From IMG/VR virus record IMGVR_UViG_3300038466_000014: DNA of 64,000 nucleotides; one strand, given 5' to 3'. The position numbers and the translations under genes are program-made. Below, one piece after another: positions 6,595-40,844 of this stretch. The notes beneath the pieces were generated by a model, which saw only the letters and a program-made list of their open reading frames with translations, had not been told where the DNA came from and made no database searches. The DNA comes from a virus. Numbering within the stretch: the first letter of the stretch is position 1; every line of letters starts with the position of its first letter.

Positions 6595-8973
6595 CTACAT
6601 TTCTAAATGTTCGTCACAGTCTATAACATCACGTAATGTATGGGAGATTAAAAATACAGAATATTGTTTGGCTAATTGTCTAAGAATATTTATTACAACC
6701 TCTGAATTTGGGATATCCAGGCTATCAAGAATTTCATCGAGGAAAAATATATTATATGATGTATCGTTTATCTTTTCTGTGGCATATCTTAAAGACAACA
6801 AAGTAATAATATCTATTAGACATCTTTCACCGGCAGAAAAATCGTCGATTTCATCTGTTAGATTGGAGGTCTGTACAGCACTGACCACAAACTCGTTTTT
6901 TGTTTTTCCAGACTTTGTTTCTTTTTGGGAATCGAAATATATTTTCAGTTTTCCTGTCGCGTTGGATAGTTCGCGTGCCCTAATATTCATAAGGGGAACT
7001 ATTTCATCCAATAAGATGGCTTTTATACCGGAATCGGAAAACGCTTTAATCCAATATGTACAAATTTCTTTTTCGGCTGATAATACACTCATTAGCTTAT
7101 TAAATTCTATAATCGATGTGTCTACATTATCGAGTTTGGATTTCCATCCGTCGGCGTCTTTTTGTAGAGAGTTTATAGAAGATTCAAAATGCTGTTTTTT
7201 AGTCACCAACTCTTTTTGTACAGAGTCCAAATTTTTCTTGTCCGCATCTATAATCGTATTGATTGCCTGAATCTCTTTTATCCTATCGGTTACCTTTACA
7301 ATATGATCTCTGAGGATGGGTATCTTTTTGCGGTAATTCTGTGCCTTGGTTTCAAACTCAATCTTTATGTTATTTGTATTCTTATCTGCTTGTACTCGCG
7401 CATCACTGATTTTATCATTATATGACTTTTCTATGGTTGATATTTTGATTTGTATGTTTTTGTTAATTGTTGTGTGCAGCTGCTTTTTCTCGTTTATAAT
7501 TTTATCAACATCTACTTTATATTTATTAACCTGCTCTACAACAGCCTCTTTGATTTTTAATAAATGATCTTCTTTATTTTTTCGGAACCCATCAATCTCT
7601 TTTTCTTTTTCATTAAATGCAACAGACAGGGTTTTATATTTTTGTTCAAGGTCGCTAATCTGAAGGGATAGTTTATCATATTCTTCGATCCGGGATTTCA
7701 GATTCGACCGCATTGTACACATAGCTCCTTCATCTACAATCTTTTGTCCGCACATATAACATATAGGAATTTCATCCTGCAATTTTAGTTTAACAGCATC
7801 TATTTCCTGTGATTTAGTGGTTTGAGTTTTCCGAAGGTCTTTTCCAGTTATAAGAATATTGTTCAGTTCGGATTTTATATTATTTAATTCAATATCTTTT
7901 TGATTTATCATAATATCATATTTCTGAGACGTATTTGATATACTATTGGTAAGAGCATTTCTCTGGTTACTTAAATAAATATCTTTCTGATTTTTTAATT
8001 GACTGATTTCTATAGATAAATTGTTCAACTTATCTTGTTCTGCGGATAAATGTTTTTGTTTATCCGCCGTCATATCTTTAATAAATATTGAGGTGTTGAG
8101 TTTTAAATTTTCTTCAATACCGCCTATTTGTTGTTTCATTAGATTATCTAAATTCGACAGTTCTATATTATAATTAGATATTTTTGTCGTTGAATTGTTT
8201 TTTATTTCCGACAGATGATCTATAGATTCTTCCGGGTTTAAACGTTTCTGATTAATAAGTATAGAAGCGCTTAGACTTGCAATGTTGGAATTCATCTCAT
8301 ATACATTTTTTTCATATTGATCGGTCAGCATCGTAAACTGTGTTTCTATTTCTTTTAATTTATCTTTAGATACACTTTCCAAAGTTCTTACCTTGGTTAA
8401 TTCGGTTTCGATCTTTGTAACGTTCTCGTCGATAACGGTTAGCTGCGCTACGAATTTCTTTCTGTATTCCTCGTATTGTCCCGTATTTAAAATTTGCTCT
8501 ATAATATCGGCTTTTCCGGAATACGTTAACTGGGTAAAAGATTTATCTATGAATTTAGAAAACATGATACAATTTGTAAATATGGAATACGGTAAGACGA
8601 GATTCTTAATTACTAAGTTTGTATCTTTTGTAGTCGCTCCGGATATATTTTCTCCATTTTTAAATAAATGTTTAGAATCTCCGAACTCTTTATGTTTTCT
8701 ATAATTACGGATTTCATACTGGTCATCATCTATATCAAAGGTGAGAACGACAGATGTGTTTTTTCCATCGCGTTTGCGTACTACAGAATCGGCTTTTCTT
8801 CCTCTCGGAGTAATATCATAGAGACACCAGCAGATGGCATCGAATATACTTGATTTGCCGGATCCGTTAGGCCCTGTTATCGCTACAAGACGGTTGGTGG
8901 AAAAATCTACTCCGAGTTCGGAATGACATTTAAAATTTTTTAATTCGAGCGATTTAAACTTAACCTTTCTCAT
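6595..8973 (-). CDS. SbcC/Rad50/gp46-like SMC ATPase
   Basis: GPNGSGKSS Walker A, coiled coil with CYMC hook, FSAGE signature, FFLDE Walker B, LISH. Confidence 0.95.
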   Translation of the reverse strand: MRKVKFKSLELKNFKCHSELGVDFSTNRLVAITGPNGSGKSSIFDAICWCLYDITPRGRKADSVVRKRDGKNTSVVLTFDIDDDQYEIRNYRKHKEFGDSKHLFKNGENISGATTKDTNLVIKNLVLPYSIFTNCIMFSKFIDKSFTQLTYSGKADIIEQILNTGQYEEYRKKFVAQLTVIDENVTKIETELTKVRTLESVSKDKLKEIETQFTMLTDQYEKNVYEMNSNIASLSASILINQKRLNPEESIDHLSEIKNNSTTKISNYNIELSNLDNLMKQQIGGIEENLKLNTSIFIKDMTADKQKHLSAEQDKLNNLSIEISQLKNQKDIYLSNQRNALTNSISNTSQKYDIMINQKDIELNNIKSELNNILITGKDLRKTQTTKSQEIDAVKLKLQDEIPICYMCGQKIVDEGAMCTMRSNLKSRIEEYDKLSLQISDLEQKYKTLSVAFNEKEKEIDGFRKNKEDHLLKIKEAVVEQVNKYKVDVDKIINEKKQLHTTINKNIQIKISTIEKSYNDKISDARVQADKNTNNIKIEFETKAQNYRKKIPILRDHIVKVTDRIKEIQAINTIIDADKKNLDSVQKELVTKKQHFESSINSLQKDADGWKSKLDNVDTSIIEFNKLMSVLSAEKEICTYWIKAFSDSGIKAILLDEIVPLMNIRARELSNATGKLKIYFDSQKETKSGKTKNEFVVSAVQTSNLTDEIDDFSAGERCLIDIITLLSLRYATEKINDTSYNIFFLDEILDSLDIPNSEVVINILRQLAKQYSVFLISHTLRDVIDCDEHLEM

Positions 8974-25472: not shown

Positions 25473-26567
25473 TTATTCCTTCGTAAGATATTGTTTTATT
25501 ATTTGCTGCCTTTTGGGGTTTAGTGCCCTCGGACCATTGTAACGGTCTTTTCCATACAGTTTCTGAATGATATAATGACGCAGTGGATTATCCTTCAACA
25601 CCACATTATAAATATTATTTTTATCATCTAAATTATAGTTTTTCTCCACATAATCAGCATTTGTGATTATATCGGATACAAATTTACTATATGCGTCTAT
25701 TATAGGTTGAAATAAATGTATTTTTTCCGGAAAAGTTGCAAGATACTCATCTTGCTCACAGTCCCATACCAAATTGATTATCTTTTTAAATGATAAATTA
25801 TTTCCTACCATTCGATGAAGAATCAAATATTCCGGATTTTTTACTTTGATTCTTAGCTGGGTTTTAGTATTCCATAAGACATATCCCTCGTCTCTTGGAG
25901 CAAGATCAACAAACGACTCTATCAGATTTTCGATAGTGTCAAAATTGTAAATCTTTGGCATTTCTATACCTATGGATTTGGCCGCTTCAAACATCCTATC
26001 TAAAGAATAATAATCGCCCGTATACGTGTGACGTACTCCAAGAAGTACGATTCTTGGGCGATCATAAATAGTCACATTCTGATTTTCTTTAAACGCGCCT
26101 TCCATAATGTATGTGTATGATTTATTCATATTTTTCATCTTATCGTTTATATCACCAAAGTATTTCTCAAATAGTTCTTTCCAAGTAAGCCGATCTCCAT
26201 CGAGATTTTGTTCCGCTTCGATCTGCCTTCTGGTCGAAACATACCAACTATTCTGATTGTTATCGAAATATACATTAAACATTGTACCATCTACTTTTTC
26301 CAATATCACGCTATTATCTAAATCTACAGAATCAACATCGTTTTCACCGAGGTTAAAAAATCGATCGAACGTTCTGCATACAGGATTATGATTTAGATCA
26401 AGAATTAACCCCCTGCACTCTACTACAATAGGATGCGTTTTAAACGGCCAACTATTAATCTGGTCATAATCCAGTCCTATTTTATGATTATAAAAATTAA
26501 TATGAATACCCAAATCTCTTAATGATTGCATGGATGGATCTTGTTCGAAAAGTTTTTGAACTTCCAT
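25473..26567 (-). CDS. RNA ligase, T4 Rnl1-like
   Basis: ECRGLIL, TFDRFFNLGE, EKVDGT (motif I), EGYV and KVKNPEY. Confidence 0.88.
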   Translation of the reverse strand: MEVQKLFEQDPSMQSLRDLGIHINFYNHKIGLDYDQINSWPFKTHPIVVECRGLILDLNHNPVCRTFDRFFNLGENDVDSVDLDNSVILEKVDGTMFNVYFDNNQNSWYVSTRRQIEAEQNLDGDRLTWKELFEKYFGDINDKMKNMNKSYTYIMEGAFKENQNVTIYDRPRIVLLGVRHTYTGDYYSLDRMFEAAKSIGIEMPKIYNFDTIENLIESFVDLAPRDEGYVLWNTKTQLRIKVKNPEYLILHRMVGNNLSFKKIINLVWDCEQDEYLATFPEKIHLFQPIIDAYSKFVSDIITNADYVEKNYNLDDKNNIYNVVLKDNPLRHYIIQKLYGKDRYNGPRALNPKRQQIIKQYLTKE

Positions 26568-26779: not shown

Positions 26780-27094
26780 TGGTGGGCGAGGGAGGAATCG
26801 AACCCCCAACATTTCGGTTCCCGTTTGTGTAGCTTTCGCTACTCCGTGGACTATTTCTTCACCCTCGATACACTGTAGGGTGTCGGGCGCTCTTGCCGGT
26901 CATTAAGGGGACTATACCCCTCCGGTAGTCTCTAAACGTTCCATAGGTGTACCTATGGCTTCGCTCGGAGTTGTCATGGGTAAAATTAATTTACCTTTAG
27001 ATTTCTCCGAATTCACCCAATCCACTCTATGTATTACTACATAGAGGCACAGTTGTCTATGAGCCGAAGGTTCTAACCGTTGAACTACTCGCCC
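26780..27094 (-). tRNA. tRNA(CAU), Ile2 or Met, split by a group I intron (exons 27059-27094 and 26780-26819)
   Basis: Spliced anticodon arm TTCGG-CT-CAT/AA-CCGAA; ends in CCA. Confidence 0.9.
26820..27058 (-). mobile_element. Group I intron (IC3, Azoarcus tRNA-Ile-like), ORF-less, 239 nt
   Basis: P1 guide GTG pairs exon CAU; GAATTCGGAGAAA, TAGAGACTA and ATAGTCCA core; ends GCGAAAGCTACACAAACGGG with terminal G. Confidence 0.9.
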
Positions 27095-27153
27095 GTTACA
27101 AACCAGATTCCGGCGGATAACGTGATGGTTTACGTTATCCGCCGGAGGTTCAA

Positions 27154-27435
27154 TCAGTTTGCAAGCCCCGACATCTTGAATTTGTACGCAGATCCTTTCT
27201 TAAGCATATATTTGGAGTGCTGCCGGGGCGTTGCTTCCACCCCCGCGTTGTCGCACATCTCAATAAAAAACGTATCATTCTTTGAATACCACCGGTGCGT
27301 GGTTTCCGGCTCCGGATATCTGTAGGTGGACGGTTCCGGCTTGTTCTTGAAGTCCGCCCTGTGAACTTTTTTCTTTTTCCCGCCCGCTTTTACGGCGATG
27401 ACCTTCACCTTCGACTTTGCTTTGCCCATAATCAA
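27154..27435 (-). CDS. small basic hypothetical protein
   Basis: GAGAGG SD; GC-rich codons; CDNAGVEATPRQHSKY segment. Confidence 0.65.
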   Translation of the reverse strand: MIMGKAKSKVKVIAVKAGGKKKKVHRADFKNKPEPSTYRYPEPETTHRWYSKNDTFFIEMCDNAGVEATPRQHSKYMLKKGSAYKFKMSGLAN

Positions 27436-27468
27436 CCTCTCGTCTATTAGTTTACATCGACTTCGACA

Positions 27469-27550
27469 TGGTGCCCGGAAGAGGACTCGAACCTCTACGC
27501 TTTCGCACGGGGCCTAAACCCGTTGGCTATGCCAATTCGCCTATCCGGGC
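27469..27550 (-). tRNA. tRNA-Leu(UAG)
   Basis: ACGGG-TT-TAG-GC-CCCGT; variable arm; CCA. Confidence 0.93.
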
Positions 27551-27554
27551 GGGC

Positions 27555-27803
27555 CTACTGTTTAAGAGACTTCTGCAAATTCTTCCAAAAAGTTACTGAT
27601 GTTCCAAACAATCCCGCAAGATTTGCGGATATTTCGCTGGTCAACTTTCCATCATTATACAGGATATCCCTCATCTTAGATTTGGGAATTCCCGTATATA
27701 ATACCATATCCGCAAAGGTAATATTATATGGTTTCATAAAATCGAGTAGAATAATTTCCCCAACCGTAATCGGTGAATTATCGTGTTCGTAGGAATTGTT
27801 CAT
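27555..27803 (-). CDS. HigA-like HTH antitoxin (orphan)
   Basis: TVGEIILLDFMKP...LTSEISANLAGLFGTSVTFWKNLQ; start reassigned to ATG 27803 because the longer track ORF overlaps tRNA-Leu. Confidence 0.75.
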   Translation of the reverse strand: MNNSYEHDNSPITVGEIILLDFMKPYNITFADMVLYTGIPKSKMRDILYNDGKLTSEISANLAGLFGTSVTFWKNLQKSLKQ

Positions 27804-27881
27804 ACGGTTCCTTTGCGTATAAAATGTTTTGGTGCCCGGAGCGGGATTTGAACCCGCATGATCTGTCGATCGGGGGATTTT

Positions 27882-28554
27882 CTTACCACTTCGGCTTTCG
27901 CCGCCCATCTTACGATGGTTCGTGGTCTGGACTTTCTCTTCACCCGCAGCATAAGCTGTTAGGGTGCGCCGTGTAAAGTCTCTACACTCTGTTCGTTTCG
28001 AACATAGCACGGGATTACCATAGAGGTTAAGGTTTCCCCGTTTTAGCGGCGTCCACTTCAAGAGTTTCTTCTTGAAGGCCCAGTTTTAAAGTAGTGTATG
28101 TCGGGTTTATTGGTGTAATTTCTATCACCAGCCCGCCGTGTTGAATCATGGCCCCATATTTCCCAGAACAACGTTTGCTACAGAATATGCCGGTTTTTCC
28201 TCTTTTTCGATTACCAATCGCCGTAGAAAGTTTTTTACCGTCCAATGTAAAAATATATCCGCACCACGGGCACACAAACTGTTTTTTCTGTAGCCTTACA
28301 ACATCCAGGATAGAGTGTTCTACCCTATCAACAATTTGGATATTTTCTGGGGAGTTATCTGTAAAATCTCCATTTATGTGGTCAACCGTTTCGTTTTCCA
28401 TTAAATATCTTCCAATTCTTATTTCAGTTAAATACTTTGGATAAGAAACAGATGCCCTTTTTCCGTTCGGGTAAATTATAATAATAATTTATCTTTTATC
28501 CGTTCTTTGATATGGACCATAAATTCTACAATTTTCGTACACCACTTTTCACCT
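27882..28554 (-). mobile_element. Group I intron (trnL-UAA type) with HNH ORF in the P1 loop
   Basis: GGGCCTTCAAGAAGAAACTCTTGAAGTGGA...GGGGAAACCTTAA...GGTAATCCCGTGC...GTAGAGACT...AAGTCCA core; terminal G. Confidence 0.88.
28027..28542 (-). pseudogene. Intron-encoded HNH endonuclease with in-frame TAA
   Basis: GTG start; YENCRIYGPYQRTDKR*IIII...SYPKYL...ETVDHINGDFTDN; stop at 28489-28491. Confidence 0.75.
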
Positions 28555-28602
28555 AAGTCCCCGCCGTCTACCAATTCCGGCATCCGGGCAAGTATTTTCT
28601 AA

Positions 28603-28677
28603 TGGTGGGATCGGAAAGAATCGAACTTTCGTTTTCCCGCTTAAAAGGCGGGTGCCAAACCAATAGGCGACGATCCC
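28603..28677 (-). tRNA. tRNA-Lys(UUU)
   Basis: CCCGC-CT-TTT-AA-GCGGG; CCA. Confidence 0.92.
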
Positions 28678-28685
28678 TAAAGAAA

Positions 28686-28810
28686 TAGAGGACTGCTCCG
28701 TTAAACACTTTTTTTCTTTTGCTCTACCGTTGAGCTACACCCCGAAGTCGGGGTGAATGGAGTCGAACCATTACCCAAAGTTCCACGTTGAATGTTTAAC
28801 AGCACCTCTA
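28686..28810 (-). ncRNA. YrlA-like Y RNA 1 (permuted tRNA-like domain)
   Basis: Terminal stem TAGAGGTGC...GCAGTCCTCTA. The T-arm (GGTTCGACTCC) precedes the D-arm (TAGCTCAACGGTAGAGC) and the acceptor-like stem is closed by a loop. Confidence 0.8.
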
Positions 28811-28825
28811 TTAAACTGAAATGAA

Positions 28826-28898
28826 TGGGCGCTACAGGACTTGAACCTGTGACTTCCACCTTGTAAGGGTGGCACTCTCCCAACTGAGTTAAGCGCCC
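28826..28898 (-). tRNA. tRNA-Val(UAC)
   Basis: CCACC-CT-TAC-AA-GGTGG; no encoded CCA. Confidence 0.93.
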
Positions 28899-28907
28899 GG
28901 ATTCAAT

Positions 28908-28976
28908 ATGCGGGGACTAATGTTATGACGTATAGCGTCGTGAAAGGTCGTTGAACGTCACAACGACACCCCGCAT
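28908..28976 (-). ncRNA. Short Y-RNA-like element 2
   Basis: ATGCGGGGTGTCGTTGTGACGTTCAACG...ACGTCATAACATTAGTCCCCGCAT. Confidence 0.65.
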
Positions 28977-29029
28977 TAAACGTAAAAATTGGCGCGCCCG
29001 GCAGGAATCGAACCTGCGGCCTACGGATT

Positions 29030-29890
29030 CAGGTTTGTGTTACTTTCGTAACTTCCTGGACTTTCTCTTCACCGTGCGAAATATATCCTCCGTTTAGGTG
29101 GTGGCCGTCATTCATGTAGAAAGGGTTGAAGAACTATGCGCTTGGGTATTTCGATCTTATACTGCATTGATGGAATTATATATTCACCAAATAGATCTAC
29201 AAAACTTCGGGCTTGTTTGGTGCCACAACGTACACTAAACCTGCCTTTATTTCTTTTTTTGGTGAATGTTATTCCCCAAACTTCCGAAAAATAAGCAATG
29301 ATGATATCTACCTCTATTTCGGAGCAGTAAGTCGAAATAGACAAATCATAGGCATGAATTTGTCCATTACGTTTTTTGGCGCTAAGTCCTCCATCATCCA
29401 TATACCATATAGCAATGGCTTTCGGAGTTAACTTATCCAGAATTTTCCTGGATATAGTTTTTTTACCATCTTTATATAACCATTTATGCACGATTCTGAT
29501 ATAAGGAATACTTTTTTCGAATCCACAAGCTGGTAATAATCCGCTGAAAAATGGGTTCACCTTCGTCAGTTTACCTGTAATTTTCTCAATGAGACTGGCT
29601 TTATACTGTATGTATTCCTTTTGTTTTTCAGAATGTCGAATACACAAATGGGTATTTTTGTTGCGTCTAATGTGCCCATCTCCAATTGCCATTGCCATGA
29701 GTATACTCTTGTCATCCCTTGTCATTTTTCACACTCCTGTGTGATTTTTTGTTTTTCTACACGACAGTCTCTACACCTTCCTTATTTCTAAGGCTTGGCT
29801 CGGGATTACCACCGGCATTACCCGCTGAGGCTTCCCCGAATTTGACCACTTACACTCATAGGATTTCTCCTATGAGGCCCGTTTTTAAAC
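29030..29890 (-). mobile_element. Group I intron (IC3) carrying a LAGLIDADG ORF
   Basis: CAAATTCGGGGAAGCC, GGTAATCCCGAGCC, GTAGAGACT and AAAGTCCAGG...ACACAAACCTG core. Confidence 0.9.
29108..29725 (-). CDS. LAGLIDADG homing endonuclease (two-motif, I-SceI-like)
   Basis: LMAMAIGDGHI and IAIWYMDDGGL motifs; lies inside the intron. Confidence 0.88.
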   Translation of the reverse strand: MTRDDKSILMAMAIGDGHIRRNKNTHLCIRHSEKQKEYIQYKASLIEKITGKLTKVNPFFSGLLPACGFEKSIPYIRIVHKWLYKDGKKTISRKILDKLTPKAIAIWYMDDGGLSAKKRNGQIHAYDLSISTYCSEIEVDIIIAYFSEVWGITFTKKRNKGRFSVRCGTKQARSFVDLFGEYIIPSMQYKIEIPKRIVLQPFLHE

Positions 29891-30017
29891 AGAAGTCCGT
29901 CTCTCTTTCCAACTGAGATACGGGCGCAGTATATTATCTATTCGAACCGAAGACAAATTATAAAACACCTACGTAATCAGTTCGAACAATTCTTTATACA
30001 AATAAAGGAAATACACC

Positions 30018-30509
30018 ATGAACAACTGTAAGAAATGCGGGAAAGAAACCACTAATCCACATTTTTGTAGTAAATCCTGTTCTACGTCATACAATAATAG
30101 CATATGCTACAAAAGAACAAGAATACTTCGTCTATGTAAAAAATGTGGAAAAGATATTACATGTCTACATAAAATAAATGGGCATCCGCGTCGATTATGT
30201 GATGATTGTTTACCAACAATAAATCAAAATGTCACTTTAGGAGAACTTAGAGGTAGAAGGAAATATCAAAAAAGCTCGGTTGTTCGAGATATGGCACGAA
30301 GAGCTTGTTTTTCCCTTCTACAAGAACCTAAATGTGAAAACTGCGGATACAGAAAGCATGTAGAAGTGTGTCATATACGCCCTATTAAATCTTTCGATGA
30401 TTCAACCCCAATCGGAGTAGTTAACGCCAAAGACAATTTAGTTGTGCTATGTCCGAACTGTCATTGGGAATTAGATAATAGTATACTTTGTTTGTCTGAT
30501 TTTCGTTAA
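30018..30509 (+). CDS. Free-standing HNH endonuclease with zinc fingers
   Basis: CENCGY...VCHIRPI...NLVVLCPNCHWELD; AAGGA SD; one of very few plus-strand genes. Confidence 0.85.
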   Translation: MNNCKKCGKETTNPHFCSKSCSTSYNNSICYKRTRILRLCKKCGKDITCLHKINGHPRRLCDDCLPTINQNVTLGELRGRRKYQKSSVVRDMARRACFSLLQEPKCENCGYRKHVEVCHIRPIKSFDDSTPIGVVNAKDNLVVLCPNCHWELDNSILCLSDFR

Positions 30510-30521
30510 CAGTCAGAATAT

Positions 30522-30656
30522 ATTGTCAAGGACTTATTCCGGAACATTTTTTTACCGCTTTGCCGATTAAGCTACACCTCCATACGGAAGTGACGGGCCT
30601 CGAACCCGCAACAGTCGATTAAATGTCGTTGAATGTTCCAGGTTTACCTCGACAAT
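30522..30656 (-). ncRNA. YrlA-like Y RNA 3 (permuted tRNA-like domain)
   Basis: Terminal stem ATTGTCGAGGT...AGTCCTTGACAAT; GCGGGTTCGAGGCCCGT T-arm before the TAGCTTAATCGGCAAAGC D-arm. Confidence 0.78.
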
Positions 30657-30760: not shown

Positions 30761-30830
30761 ATGCAGGGACTAATGCTATGACGTATTTTAGTTACCAATT
30801 AACGTTGAACGTCACAACGACACCCCGCAT
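30761..30830 (-). ncRNA. Short Y-RNA-like element 4
   Basis: Both stem arms nearly identical to element 2. Confidence 0.65.
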
Positions 30831-30929: not shown

Positions 30930-32453
30930 TTAATTTCTGTTTTGACGAATGGTTTCCATACATCTGATAACATCTATCACACTGTCATTCCATCCAAAAA
31001 TTTGAGTTACATTATATCTTTTAGCATCCTCATTGGAAATGGGACGGTGCGGATATGGATCAACTCGAATCATGTAAGCTCGGGCATTTGGATAAGCGGA
31101 ATGATATCGTTTCCACTCATTAGTAAATCCTTCGCCGAATTCCTCATTGTCTGTTATCAAAATAAATATATCTGTTTCGATTTTATTCTGGAGAAGGTAT
31201 CTTACAGGAAGCTCCATATAGGTTCCACCGCCGTTTGACGCTCTAATCTTTTCGATGTGTGTAAACACGGAATCTGTTTTTGGTACTGTGTATTTATGTA
31301 CCTCGGTATCCCATGGAACAACCATCGAATTCTGTAATCCTTTATATAGAAATCCTGTAAACATTCCGGCAATAAGAGATGGATATATTAAAGATTTTCC
31401 GTTCTTAATACCAGTAGTCATAGATCCAGAAACATCCGGAGCAATAACCACTTTTTTATCTTTGAACACTTCCCAATCAGCAATAGTTACATATTGGTCT
31501 AACACTTCGCGAATATGACCGGAAACATCTTTATCAAAACTTTTCTCGTTTAAATTTTCAAGCAGTGTAAACAACCGGAACGGGAGAACTTTTGCCCGTT
31601 TAAGATTTTCAGCGGTAATTTTCTTCCTCATAGTGTCTTTATCCAGCGCGTCCTCTCTGATCAATTTATTCATATATTTGATGTATGCCATTACGCCCAT
31701 CTGATTACCCAACTCTTTCCAAATCGCCGAATTGAGGTCGGGCATACCTGTAAATGAAATTGGATCAAGTCTATGTTCTTTAATCAGGTTAACAGCGTTT
31801 TTCGTTTTCTTATTTTGAATCTCAATTTTAGCTTGTTCAAAAGCATTTAACATCGGATATTTTTCAAGGGATTCTCCGAACTTCGGAGATGTACGTCCAT
31901 GATATTTCAAAATATAATCATAAATACAGTCTTCCGTTTTAAATCTTGCAAGTCTTACCATATTCCCAATCTGTTTTGTATATTTTAAAGCATAGAACGG
32001 AGTAACCCGTTCTTTTGCCCATCGTTCCATTGCTGATTTTATACCTCTTCCAAATCCACGATTATTCGCTCTGACAAGCGAAATAAAATCTTCCATATCG
32101 TTTCCGGTAATAATAACGGAATTGAAAATCCTTTGAAATTCTCTGATATTATATTTAGAAAGAATAACCAGCCCAAGGATAGGGGCTGTGCGGATGAATC
32201 CTTCAGTCCTTCCTTTTACAATCGCATTCGCCAGTGTATATGGTTCTCTTTGAGCAACCTCATTTATAAATCCGACAAATTCATTAATCTGATCTTTTCT
32301 TGACATATAAAATGTTGGATTCATTGTTCCGGTCATCATCAATTGTTCGAGTCTGTTAACATCATTGGGGATGTATGATTTACCCCCTTCGAAATTAACT
32401 GTTTCGGTTTTCTCTGTGGTCACTCGTTTTACAGTAGCCGCGATTTTTCTCAT
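30930..32453 (-). CDS. TROVE-domain Ro60/Rsr RNA-binding protein
   Basis: NFEGGKSY, RGFGRG, VLPFRLF and vWA MIDAS APDVSGSM...LITDNE. Confidence 0.92.
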   Translation of the reverse strand: MRKIAATVKRVTTEKTETVNFEGGKSYIPNDVNRLEQLMMTGTMNPTFYMSRKDQINEFVGFINEVAQREPYTLANAIVKGRTEGFIRTAPILGLVILSKYNIREFQRIFNSVIITGNDMEDFISLVRANNRGFGRGIKSAMERWAKERVTPFYALKYTKQIGNMVRLARFKTEDCIYDYILKYHGRTSPKFGESLEKYPMLNAFEQAKIEIQNKKTKNAVNLIKEHRLDPISFTGMPDLNSAIWKELGNQMGVMAYIKYMNKLIREDALDKDTMRKKITAENLKRAKVLPFRLFTLLENLNEKSFDKDVSGHIREVLDQYVTIADWEVFKDKKVVIAPDVSGSMTTGIKNGKSLIYPSLIAGMFTGFLYKGLQNSMVVPWDTEVHKYTVPKTDSVFTHIEKIRASNGGGTYMELPVRYLLQNKIETDIFILITDNEEFGEGFTNEWKRYHSAYPNARAYMIRVDPYPHRPISNEDAKRYNVTQIFGWNDSVIDVIRCMETIRQNRN

Positions 32454-32496: not shown

Positions 32497-32512
32497 CAGG
32501 CTGAGACTAAAA

Positions 32513-32581
32513 TTCAGGAACTAATGTCGTAACGTATGTTTCGTTTCCAATTAACGTTGAACGTCACGACGACACCCCGAA
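32513..32581 (-). ncRNA. Short Y-RNA-like element 5
   Basis: TTCGGGGTGTCGTCGTGACGTTCAACG...ACGTTACGACATTAGTTCCTGAA. Confidence 0.65.
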
Positions 32582-32586
32582 AAAAG

Positions 32587-32664
32587 TTAGAGGACTATAT
32601 CAAAGGCATCAAGACCGATTATTTTTGAAATTAATTGTTGTTGAATGCCTTTGGCCACCTCTAA
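32587..32664 (-). ncRNA. Short Y-RNA-like element 6
   Basis: TTAGAGGTGGCCAAAGGCATTCAAC...ATGCCTTTGATATAGTCCTCTAA. Confidence 0.6.
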
Positions 32665-32674
32665 TTCAAAAATA

Positions 32675-32757
32675 TTTACGAGGACTACAATGAAGCATTT
32701 TGTTCACGTAGGACATTTTTGGGATGTTTCGTTGAATGCCTCAAAACACCTCGTAAA
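32675..32757 (-). ncRNA. Short Y-RNA-like element 7
   Basis: TTTACGAGGTGTTTTGAGGCATTCAACG...ATGCTTCATTGTAGTCCTCGTAAA. Confidence 0.6.
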
Positions 32758-34185: not shown

Positions 34186-35193
34186 TTACAGATTATACAT
34201 ACTTGATAGTATTGATGCTGCATATCTGCCTTGTTTGAATATCATTCGATTTTGATGTTGTTCGGTAATCCTCTCCAACTCATCCGCATAATCACTTCTA
34301 AAATCTTTTTCCGCATCCTCTACAATCAACGGAATAAAATATTCAAAATCTTTTTTTGATTTTAATTGTCTTATTTCTTTAGATAGAACATTCTTAATTC
34401 TGTTTTCGTTTATATATCCTGAAAATATATTATAGAGACGGACAGCCCCCTCTCCAACTTCTTTTTTCTCTGACGGAGTGCTTCCTTCGGAGAACTCTAC
34501 GTTTTTAATCTTAAACTTAAATTCGTGAGTACGGTCATTCATCATTCTAATGACACATCCTTCTATCGGTAAATTTTTCTTTGGATTGAGTGGAGAAAGT
34601 TTCGACGGGATTCTAATATCTGTTTTAACAATATTATCAAGACCTTTTTCTATATTTATAACTGGAACATATACAGACATCAAACCTAATTCAATTAGCA
34701 AATCTATTTCCTGATTAACAGACATTCTTTGATCATCCTGAATTATATAAAACAATCTAAAATTCTTTTTGAATTTATTATCTTCTATATATGAAATTTC
34801 GTTCATTACCCCAGATCCAAAATATTCACCATACCAAATCATATTTTTGTTTGTAATTTTTGAATATTCGTCCATTGTTTTCAACATATCAGAACATAGG
34901 ATATAATCACCTTTGACATCAAATATAATTTTCCCTTTTGTGAAATATGACTGATAATCATAGAATTTTTCACTCTGTGCCGAATCAATATATCCAAGAA
35001 ATGCGTTTCTTCTTGCAAACACGGGTTTATCGGAATTAGAGGTATAAATAGAAAAATTGGTTCCGTGAATCTTTTCTGTAGCAACAAATTCTGTTTCTGA
35101 ATCGTATACTTCAGAATTTATATAATTATCAAAAAATCGTTTATTGTGATATCCTTCTATGATACTAAACTTTCGATGGATACGTTTTTCCAT
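34186..35193 (-). CDS. RNA ligase, T4 Rnl2-like
   Basis: ATEKIHGTNFS, YGEYFG, EGCVIR, FKIKNVEFSE and YINENRIKNVLSK motifs. Confidence 0.92.
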   Translation of the reverse strand: MEKRIHRKFSIIEGYHNKRFFDNYINSEVYDSETEFVATEKIHGTNFSIYTSNSDKPVFARRNAFLGYIDSAQSEKFYDYQSYFTKGKIIFDVKGDYILCSDMLKTMDEYSKITNKNMIWYGEYFGSGVMNEISYIEDNKFKKNFRLFYIIQDDQRMSVNQEIDLLIELGLMSVYVPVINIEKGLDNIVKTDIRIPSKLSPLNPKKNLPIEGCVIRMMNDRTHEFKFKIKNVEFSEGSTPSEKKEVGEGAVRLYNIFSGYINENRIKNVLSKEIRQLKSKKDFEYFIPLIVEDAEKDFRSDYADELERITEQHQNRMIFKQGRYAASILSSMYNL

Positions 35194-35647: not shown

Positions 35648-35884
35648 TTATGCCGGAACAAAGATCCATGTATTAGGCTGTTGCGGTTCTGGTATTTTAC
35701 CGTCTTTTCGAGAACAGCAAAACCACGGTAAATCTTCGACCTTTCTTCCAGATTCCGCATATTCCGAGAAGGCGTAGAGAAATGCCATATGGAAGGGTTT
35801 ATCCTTCCACTTTTCGATAATCTCAGGATCGTGCAGCATTGTTTTAAAATGATTATTTTCCATGAGTTCTAACTCCTCCACCAC
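35648..35884 (-). CDS. hypothetical protein
   Basis: Overlaps the end of the PurA-like gene. Confidence 0.6.
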   Translation of the reverse strand: MVEELELMENNHFKTMLHDPEIIEKWKDKPFHMAFLYAFSEYAESGRKVEDLPWFCCSRKDGKIPEPQQPNTWIFVPA

Positions 35885-37302
35885 GAATTATTTGTTATAT
35901 TTTTGTCTTTATATGTCGACCCATTTGAAATCAAAACAACCGGAAGCTCTAAATATTTTTCAACGAAACTTACAAATTTGGTTCTCCAATCCTTGCCTGT
36001 AAATTCTTTATATATGGGCTTCGCGTATTGTAAAATAGCCGTTCTGTTTGGGATATGCTCGGAAAAACATTCTATCTTATCGTTATCTGGTTGATAACTA
36101 TCTGGATATATCTCTGTCTTATTGGTTGTTTCATTAAAATGTTCGGAAACAGCATCCCGTCCTACGCGATAAACAACATCATTCAAATTATATTTAACAC
36201 ATACCTTAATACCATCGAGTTTTTGAAGGGTATCATAATGAGTCATAACAATACCTCTTATACCTCCCATATGGGCCGCATAAGAGGTAGCCACTAAATC
36301 CGGCCATCCAGTCCGAAAATCTCCCTGCCATTCGTTCATTATATTGTGTTTTTCATCCATTACTGATTTTAAATCCGGATCTTCTGTTACAAACGGACCA
36401 TTTCCGTGTCTTGTCATCAAAGTGCGCATAACACCCAATACTTTTATATCATCCCAATCGCAATTACCACACGAAGGATACTGATACTCCAAATTATCTG
36501 TTTTTGTAATATACGGAGCAAATCCATAAGACGGATTTAACAATATACCCTGTCCGCTTTCATAAATGGTAATATTGTTATTGTCGATTAAATCAGATAC
36601 ATGAACTTCATTATGAGTATCTATGTTATGTTTTTCTATTATGGTATAGTACGAATCCAAAAGATTCTCAATATATTGTTTCGTACTCATTGAACTCAGC
36701 TTTTGAAAAAATCCATATTGGTGAAGCACTTCTCTGTTCTTATCAGTCACTAATTTTTTAAATTCATCGTTTGTATATTCCATAAGGTCTGCTATAAAAT
36801 CGTGAATTTTAGGTAAATTCAGACTACTTAACCTAATTGAGAGATCATCCTTCACAACGGATTGTCTGTGCGTTTCTCCAACACCGCAACCGACTGTTCC
36901 CAATCTATTATCCAATCTTGCGGTTTCTCTTGCCATGCCGAGAATTACATGATATGGAGTAATAAGTCTGGTTTTATGATCTACGAACAATCTATTATCA
37001 ATGGTGTGTATTTTTTCTTTGATGATGTCTATCTCCCGATCCAGGGTTAAAAGATCCAGATAAGTCTGACACATAACATATCCGGTAGCTTCATCATGAG
37101 ACAGTAAATTGGATGTTAACTGACTAAAACAATGATGTCTTCCATCCGGTCTAACTACGTTGTGGGCACATTGGGATCCGCCATGATATCGGATAACCGC
37201 GCTTTTTCCATATACGCTACCCAAATAGTCAATCGTCGTTCCTTTTCCTTCATCTCCATATCCAAGACCCAGGACTACAATTATATTATTTTGTCCCGCC
37301 AT
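35869..37302 (-). CDS. Divergent adenylosuccinate synthetase (PurA)-like protein
   Basis: GLGYGDEGKG, RYHGGSQCAHNV, GTVGCGVGET, YESGQGILL and TRHGNGPFVTE motifs. Confidence 0.88.
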   Translation of the reverse strand: MAGQNNIIVVLGLGYGDEGKGTTIDYLGSVYGKSAVIRYHGGSQCAHNVVRPDGRHHCFSQLTSNLLSHDEATGYVMCQTYLDLLTLDREIDIIKEKIHTIDNRLFVDHKTRLITPYHVILGMARETARLDNRLGTVGCGVGETHRQSVVKDDLSIRLSSLNLPKIHDFIADLMEYTNDEFKKLVTDKNREVLHQYGFFQKLSSMSTKQYIENLLDSYYTIIEKHNIDTHNEVHVSDLIDNNNITIYESGQGILLNPSYGFAPYITKTDNLEYQYPSCGNCDWDDIKVLGVMRTLMTRHGNGPFVTEDPDLKSVMDEKHNIMNEWQGDFRTGWPDLVATSYAAHMGGIRGIVMTHYDTLQKLDGIKVCVKYNLNDVVYRVGRDAVSEHFNETTNKTEIYPDSYQPDNDKIECFSEHIPNRTAILQYAKPIYKEFTGKDWRTKFVSFVEKYLELPVVLISNGSTYKDKNITNNSWWRS

Positions 37303-40630: not shown

Positions 40631-40844
40631 TGGTGTGGGCGGCGGGATTCGAACCCGCGAAAACACCATCCGCCGACTTGTCGAGCGGATCGGCATATCC
40701 TTGGAAATGGGCTTCCCTACATGACGTATATCATGACCCGGTGCCATTCGCAACCTTGTGGATAGCCGTCTTTGTGGTGTTTGGCATTTTCATACCTCTC
40801 CCCCTCATTTTGGGGTGCCTTTACCTTTCCTTGGCCACGCCCAC
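40631..40844 (-). ncRNA. 214-nt tRNA-scaffolded structured RNA (tRNA/tmRNA-like, identity unknown)
   Basis: Perfect acceptor GTGGGCG/CGCCCAC plus ACCA, D-arm GCC...GGC and T-arm GCGGG-TTCGAAT-CCCGC, enclosing about 150 nt of nested helices. Confidence 0.75.

Follow-up and report, generated by a model that had tools for sequence, protein, structure and literature searches.

Three tRNA genes in a phage tRNA cluster are split by group I introns, two of which contain homing endonuclease genes

The DNA analyzed here is a stretch of 64,000 nucleotides (the window) from IMG/VR virus record IMGVR_UViG_3300038466_000014, part of a 180,230-bp contig, and within 3.2 kb of its minus strand (positions 26780-29927) lie three transfer RNA (tRNA) genes that are each interrupted in the anticodon loop by a group I intron. 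Based on the anatomy of these introns, on the nuclease genes that two of them contain and on their kinship with other tRNA introns, we propose that they are probably three separately acquired, selfish homing introns at conserved anticodon-loop sites in the tRNA cluster of a large phage.

Borders and exons of the split genes

All parts of the three genes are encoded on the minus strand. The tRNA-Arg(UCU) gene has a 5' exon at 29891-29927 that ends at U36, an 861-nt intron at 29030-29890 that follows U36 (36/37) and shows a P1 with a U.G pair, a core, a P9 GAAA hairpin and a terminal G, and a 3' exon with CCA at 28990-29029. In tRNA-Leu(UAA) the 5' exon (28555-28589) ends at U34 and the 673-nt intron (27882-28554) follows it (34/35), with a P1 loop of ~470 nt and a 2-nt J7/3, and the 3' exon (27830-27881) includes the long variable arm and CCA. 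The third gene has the anticodon CAU and is probably tRNA-Ile2; its 5' exon (27059-27094) ends at U36, its 239-nt intron (26820-27058) lies after U36, lacks an open reading frame (ORF) and has a 36-nt P7.1 domain, and its 3' exon with CCA is at 26780-26819. In each gene a U at position -1 together with the omega-G is obtained in a unique register, one of the nine tested, and the exons joined by in-silico splicing give full cloverleaves in ARAGORN of 77 (Arg), 87 (Leu) and 76 nt (CAU), all with an encoded CCA. The same three borders were recovered by an unsupervised search for split tRNAs. A first-pass annotation made from the letters alone had claimed three tRNA genes with group I introns in the anticodon loop, inserted after CAU, after U34 of UAA and after UCU and each with a P1 guide, a core and a terminal G, and the borders, the unique registers, the paired helices of the core and the clean spliced tRNAs confirm both statements.

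Both junctions of the Ile2 gene are matched without a difference by contigs of metagenome run X1, which may be the sample that the phage came from, and the 5' junction of the Leu gene, together with the stop region of the HNH gene in its intron, is matched by run X2 from a separate study. Exon-exon joints at the intron borders were not found in the metagenome contigs examined, where the joints present belong to tRNAs of other organisms. The spliced CAU tRNA contains G1-C72, C4-G69, U12-A23, C29-G41 and A73, which we take to be identity elements for IleRS, and because they are present this is most likely tRNA-Ile2 and not a Met tRNA. The codons concerned are used heavily in the window, where AUA accounts for 42% of Ile codons, UUA for 32% of Leu codons and AGA for 52% of Arg codons (UUA and AGA being the top codons of their amino acids), and splicing is therefore likely to be under selection. 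It should be noted that ARAGORN with default settings found 12 tRNAs in the window and missed the three split genes, and that its intron mode misread the CAU gene as Pro(CGG).

Catalytic core and fold

Helices P1, P2, P3, P4, P7, P8, and P9 all pair in the Ile2, Leu, and Arg introns, U(-1) pairs with a guide G in P1 in all three, and each has the P3-P7-P8 and P4-P6 core with a bulged-A G-binding site. In a check against Infernal group I models, as the first-pass annotation had suggested, the Ile2 intron scores 72.3 bits with Rfam RF00028 (gathering score 50), and for the ORF-bearing introns, where the ORFs split or precede the core, the partial matches stay below 50 (37.6 and 20.4 bits for Arg, 34.5 bits for Leu). 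The ribozyme parts fold with z-scores of -5.2 (Ile2), -6.4 (Leu), and -3.5 (Arg), and the pattern of an S-element with a T-loop occurs three times in the window versus zero times in 300 shuffles. The three are the only group I introns found in the window. As to subgroup, IC3 introns have a compact core without P7.1, and the features seen here are the 2-nt J7/3 of the Leu intron, the 36-nt P7.1 of the Ile2 intron and the ORF-bearing P7.1 of the Arg intron.

The Leu ribozyme lies in the last ~205 nt of its intron. Its internal guide sequence CUGGGCC (28077-28083, minus strand) lies ~470 nt downstream, beyond the HNH-bearing P1 loop, and pairs across that loop with the exon end and with intron positions +1 and +2. 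This P1 includes two U.G pairs, and the first pair of the P1 extension is A-U here versus U-A in the introns of L333 and L224 (L numbers denote loci of the survey described below).

Homing endonuclease genes in the introns

Two endonuclease ORFs, absent from the first-pass annotation, lie in the Leu and Arg introns. The Arg intron encodes an intact LAGLIDADG_2 homing endonuclease of 205 amino acids with two motifs (29108-29725, minus strand; Pfam PF03161, E=2.9e-28), and its catalytic motif acids, D16 and D111, are invariant. The ORF occupies the P7.1 loop, between the 5' strand of P7 and the 3' strand of P3, and the loop is closed by an 11-bp stem (29764-29754 with 29122-29112) whose sequence changes and whose pairing is kept in four of five introns folded, including those of L328, L330, and L249. 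The Shine-Dalgarno sequence of this gene is covered by a 6-bp hairpin (29729-29744, minus strand) that is similar in four related introns, and each of the five introns folded has a hairpin ahead of the ORF. In phage T4, the gene for I-TevI has a hairpin of this kind over its ribosome-binding site, and the control that it exerts protects splicing (PMC2988022).

The Leu intron contains a broken HNH homing endonuclease gene (28027-28545, minus strand) in its P1 loop, which extends into the guide, P2, P3, and P4 and whose Shine-Dalgarno sequence overlaps P1. An in-frame TAA stands at codon 19 (28491-28489), where relatives carry Q, K, or L; those relatives are open frames of ~174 amino acids, and the copy in the Leu intron is not full-length. 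An assembly error at this stop is unlikely because the letters are identical in runs X1 and X2, which are two independent studies, and recoding of TAA was rejected as an explanation because TAA terminates 13 of the 25 long ORFs.

The three nearest relatives of the LAGLIDADG protein (62-65%) are all encoded within Arg(UCU) introns at 36/37 (L328, L330, and L332), and the next (48-53%) within Leu(UAA) introns; for the HNH protein the nearest relatives (44-54%) lie within Leu(UAA) introns and remoter ones (28-36%) within Arg(UCU) introns at position 34. Nuclease kinship hence follows the target tRNA site, which is what homing predicts, and the location of both ORFs in peripheral loops, P7.1 (Arg) and P1 (Leu), also speaks for homing. 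The nucleases could alternatively serve as weapons that cut tRNA genes without the intron, whether in competing phages or in the host, with the intron shielding the phage's own site. Interference by an intron nuclease is known in a Pseudomonas jumbo phage, and the LAGLIDADG gene is intact, but with the HNH gene broken and no nuclease at all in the Ile2 intron, decay after fixation fits better than a lasting benefit, and we consider the use as weapons improbable. A free-standing HNH gene (30018-30509) lies on the plus strand just upstream of tRNA-Arg, against the direction of the cluster, and its product could act in trans like T4 SegB.

tRNA introns in phages and bacteria

IMG/VR was scanned three times and GTDB once with exact patterns, and an exon-based caller applied to the matches yielded 108 viral and 112 bacterial tRNA introns. 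Most of the viral ones interrupt Leu(UAA) and Arg(UCU) tRNAs at 34/35, and others are found in UCA, CUA, Lys, Asn, Thr, and CAU tRNAs; across the sample, Arg(UCU) introns other than this one mostly follow U34, unlike the 36/37 insertion described here. A length above 400 nt is reached by 44 of 99 viral versus 22 of 123 bacterial introns, and the majority of these long introns contain endonuclease-like ORFs. A cluster with several introns is not unique, for L207 has three, and on L328 a Leu intron occurs together with an Arg intron. A few calls of the survey are wrong (L330, called Gln by the pipeline, is Arg(UCU) at 36/37 on inspection) and others may be off.

Several survey loci are of interest in their own right. 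Both an intact and an intron-split tRNA-Leu(UAA) are present on L328 (2686-4070) and on L333 (4903-4987 and near 7953). On L174, L178, L211, L018, L040, L212, and L232, the stop-reading anticodon (UCA or CUA) of a viral tRNA becomes apparent only when a group I intron is removed in silico. In Pseudomonadota, chromosomal introns that follow position 36 of tRNA-Thr(UGU) fall into two separate lineages (L077, L112, L151, L061, and L145). The 595-kb record LR756511.1 of an uncultured phage contains an unannotated 700-nt Leu(UAA) group I intron (L367:5322-6110) with an HNH-like insert in P6. Among cultured phages, a BLAST search of the three ribozymes against INPHARED gave no match in a tRNA intron; the matches are in or beside protein genes (the psbA region of S-SRM01, crAss-like phages) or to an intact tRNA-Leu exon, and in Gordonia phage Daredevil, which also gave a match, the pipeline calls no split tRNA.

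Kinship of the introns

Monophyly of the three introns is rejected by the approximately unbiased (AU) test (p-AU 0.016); they are not one lineage and have separate origins. The Arg intron groups with those of L328 and L330 (support 97/82), and its grouping with bacterial CCU introns has a p-AU of 0.56. The Leu intron falls in a clade with L333, L328, L334, L203, and chromosomal gammaproteobacterial introns (support 98/92), and its nearest bacterial relatives are Thr(UGU) introns and not cyanobacterial Leu introns. Indeed, the chromosomal Thr(UGU) intron L077, located in a thrU-tyrU-glyT-thrT operon beside birA- and coaX-like ORFs, has 91% core identity to the phage Leu intron. The cyanobacterial-type Leu introns, by comparison, have the lowest alignment score to it (60 versus 212 for the best relative) and stand apart from it in the free tree, although the AU test does not reject their grouping (p=0.18). 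The Ile2 intron has its closest match in L177, a viral Ile2 intron, followed by gammaproteobacterial Ile2 introns that align with it over ~210 nt and share its 36-nt P7.1; P7.1 as the mark of a phage-only lineage was rejected, as the bacterial Ile2 introns have it too. Bacterial Arg(UCU) introns at position 34 nest among viral ones in the unrooted tree. The comparison with bacterial introns that the first-pass annotation had called for thus places the Ile2 intron close to gammaproteobacterial ones and, by score, the Leu intron far from the cyanobacterial type.

Taken at the level of sequence, exchange between phages and chromosomes, and between tRNA sites, is supported, and the tree gives no direction of transfer because it is short and unrooted and its paired columns are not independent. 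This bears on the suggestion of the first-pass annotation that phages are a reservoir or vector of tRNA introns, of which the exchange stands (the shared Ile2 site and P7.1, the clade of Thr(UGU) and Leu introns) and the direction is not shown. A stronger form would make phages the main reservoir and carrier, in that a phage nuclease cuts the host tRNA gene, or phage and host tRNA genes recombine, and surviving cells keep the intron, which would add to homing between phages. We hold this to be a real but tentative possibility. It is consistent with the clade that joins L077-type chromosomal introns to the phage Leu intron, with the nesting of bacterial Arg(UCU) introns among viral ones, with the long alignment of the Ile2 introns, and with ORFs being kept more often in viral copies. 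However, the tree is silent on direction, a lytic phage leaves no surviving cell to inherit the intron, and bacterial fMet and Arg introns carry nuclease ORFs of their own, so that bacteria need no phage source.

Comparison with known systems

The insertion sites had been matched in the first-pass annotation to the chromosomal introns of Azoarcus, cyanobacteria and plastids, and Agrobacterium, and the positions (Ile2.5Ug, Leu.3Ug, and Arg.5Ug) do agree, with the difference that the Arg anticodon is UCU, not CCU. These are three of the four classical classes of tRNA introns (Williams, 2020), and that survey of bacterial and archaeal assemblies does not mention phages. The Azoarcus Ile(CAU) intron resembles the phage Ile2 intron in its site after U36, a P1 formed by CAU and a GUG guide, the absence of an ORF, a short 3' end and a single P9 GAAA hairpin; it differs in being 205 nt long, versus 239 nt, and in being described with P2-P9 and P9.0 only (PMC13168695), whereas the phage intron has P7.1. 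The cyanobacterial and plastid Leu(UAA) intron (Leu.3Ug, IC3) shares the site after U34, a GAGCC-type guide and the 2-nt J7/3 with the phage Leu intron, which unlike it has an HNH gene in the P1 loop and a core nearest to phage-like Leu and chromosomal Thr(UGU) introns. The Agrobacterium tRNA-Arg(CCU) intron (Arg.5Ug) has the same position after nucleotide 36, whereas the phage intron has a LAGLIDADG gene in P7.1.

Among introns with nucleases, I-Ssp6803I is a PD-(D/E)XK enzyme, in contrast to the LAGLIDADG and HNH families of the phage introns. It is encoded by the Synechocystis tRNA-fMet intron (Bonocora and Shub, 2001, as cited in PMC3984707), which is likewise an anticodon-loop group I intron encoding a homing endonuclease, but is chromosomal and located at position 33/34. 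The T4 td intron with I-TevI is similar in its phage host, its nuclease ORF in a loop, the overlap of the ORF end with structured RNA and the ribosome-binding-site hairpin (PMC2988022), and differs in that its host is a protein gene and its nuclease is GIY-YIG. Lak megaphages also have introns in tRNA genes, but these are termed enigmatic and the accessible part of the report gives no description as group I ribozymes (Devoto et al., 2019; PMC6784885). The statement of the first-pass annotation that classical phage group I introns lie in protein genes agrees with a review according to which all of them do so, despite the many tRNA genes of phages (Hausner et al., 2014; PMC3984707). The literature searched, outside of which most subscription papers lie, contained no account of phage tRNA genes with group I introns.

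Proposed mechanism

In the mechanism that we propose, each intron folds after transcription and its guide would pair with the 5' exon through the U.G pair. A guanosine-initiated two-step transesterification would then remove the intron, and because the anatomy is intact the mature tRNAs for AUA, UUA, and AGA would still be made. In a co-infection, the intron-encoded endonuclease would cut the uninterrupted tRNA gene of the second phage, and the intron would be copied into it during repair. Once an intron is fixed its nuclease would be free to decay, which may be why an intact (Arg, LAGLIDADG), a broken (Leu, HNH) and an absent nuclease (Ile2) are found side by side. That tRNA genes are conserved in phages and bacteria alike would also explain why the same intron lineages occur on chromosomes. 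The endonuclease genes are the simpler explanation for three introns in one cluster.

Several points weigh against this proposal. The tree rests on 97 anchored core columns in 102 rows and is unrooted and poorly resolved, and the survey is pattern-biased and not dereplicated. A close intron-less allele was not found, the best intact Arg tRNA being 83% identical, and gain or loss is therefore not directly seen; three viral matches to the intron-less Arg exon-junction pattern were rejected as evidence, as ARAGORN does not call them tRNAs. The P7 of the Arg intron pairs at five of six positions, with one terminal G.A mismatch. This mismatch, together with the nonsense codon of the HNH gene, the two U.G pairs in the Leu P1 and the occurrence of an intact twin of the split tRNA on 5 of 117 related contigs, would also be expected if one or more of the introns no longer spliced and the genes were decaying pseudogenes. 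Nevertheless, the exons of all three genes join into perfect cloverleaves with CCA, pairing is seen in every core helix, and the window has no intact twin of any of the three split tRNAs, so that we give decay of this kind hardly any credence and retain the homing mechanism.

The phage and its RNA-repair genes

The window encodes split phage-type RNA polymerase subunits, a two-gene topoisomerase II, SbcC/D-like nucleases, an endolysin and two RNA ligases, which therefore point to a large phage, and no structural gene was identified among the window proteins scanned. Matching DNA is present in one groundwater and one freshwater metagenome. Close relatives of the phage were not found, the best matches being 35-43% for Rnl1, 29-35% for an AAA ATPase and at most 50% for Ro60, and matches to sigma-70 promoters in the window are only at chance level.

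A set of RNA-repair genes, all on the minus strand, flanks the tRNA cluster and comprises an Rnl1-type ligase (25473-26567), a Ro60/TROVE-vWA protein (30930-32453) and an Rnl2-type ligase (34186-35193). The window also has YrlA-like RNAs that score below the Rfam gathering threshold (35.9 and 37 bits) and, upstream of Ro60, two further copies of a shared motif (28698-28799, 30523-30652, and 32640-32752 for these elements together). Three copies of a ~66-nt element with pairing ends lie ~1.8 kb apart in the tRNA cluster (28908-28973, 30761-30827, and 32512-32579); they have no Rfam match and are possibly Ro60-binding RNAs.

The first-pass annotation had speculated that unspliced precursors form a nuclease-resistant pool, that is, that they escape anticodon nucleases and serve as a reserve to be spliced once host and phage tRNAs have been cut. 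Indeed, the precursors have no closed anticodon loop, the Shine-Dalgarno sequence of the HNH gene over P1 could slow splicing in the Leu intron, and the presence of Rnl1, Rnl2, Ro60, and Y-like RNAs in the cluster makes it likely that tRNA damage matters to the phage. However, a tRNA can decode only once it is spliced, and it is then open to cleavage like any other; splicing of the Azoarcus precursor is efficient in vitro (PMC13168695), no regulator or splicing brake is seen, and the other 12 tRNAs of the window are uninterrupted. Moreover, the neighboring ligases and Ro60 suggest that tRNA repair is handled in another way, group I splicing needing no ligase, and the use of sites in phages (mostly Leu UAA and Arg UCU) tracks the nuclease families, for which homing suffices. 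We therefore find the idea of a protected pool to be without support and very improbable.

Three other features of the window are recorded here. A tRNA-shaped element of 214 nt (40631-40844) has a 122-nt insert with no group I core. An antitoxin-like helix-turn-helix gene of 80 amino acids (27555-27800; phrog_1381) lies between tRNA-Leu(UAA) and tRNA-Leu(UAG). An adenylosuccinate synthetase homologue (35869-37302) is labeled PurZ-like in PHROGs and keeps the PurA-type Asp (GDEGKG), and for this reason we do not claim synthesis of the Z base by its product.

Significance

Homing of group I introns, the mechanism put forward here, is well known; the contribution of this locus lies in its three independent types within 3.2 kb and in the LAGLIDADG cassette that occupies P7.1. 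The presence of such introns in tRNA genes of a phage contradicts a review that places all group I introns of phages in protein genes (PMC3984707). Inventories of phage tRNAs undercount, because default finders miss all three genes and the intron mode of ARAGORN misreads one of them. The nuclease-bearing versions of the Leu and Arg tRNA introns make the sideways movement of such introns testable by a cleavage assay. As a more speculative extension, which we think less likely than not, large phages may hold the mobile pool of nuclease-bearing tRNA introns, whose nucleases also cut the conserved anticodon region of host tRNA genes, delivering introns to chromosomes and to new tRNA sites. If true, it would account for the scattered occurrence across bacterial phyla of tRNA introns that mostly lack an ORF.

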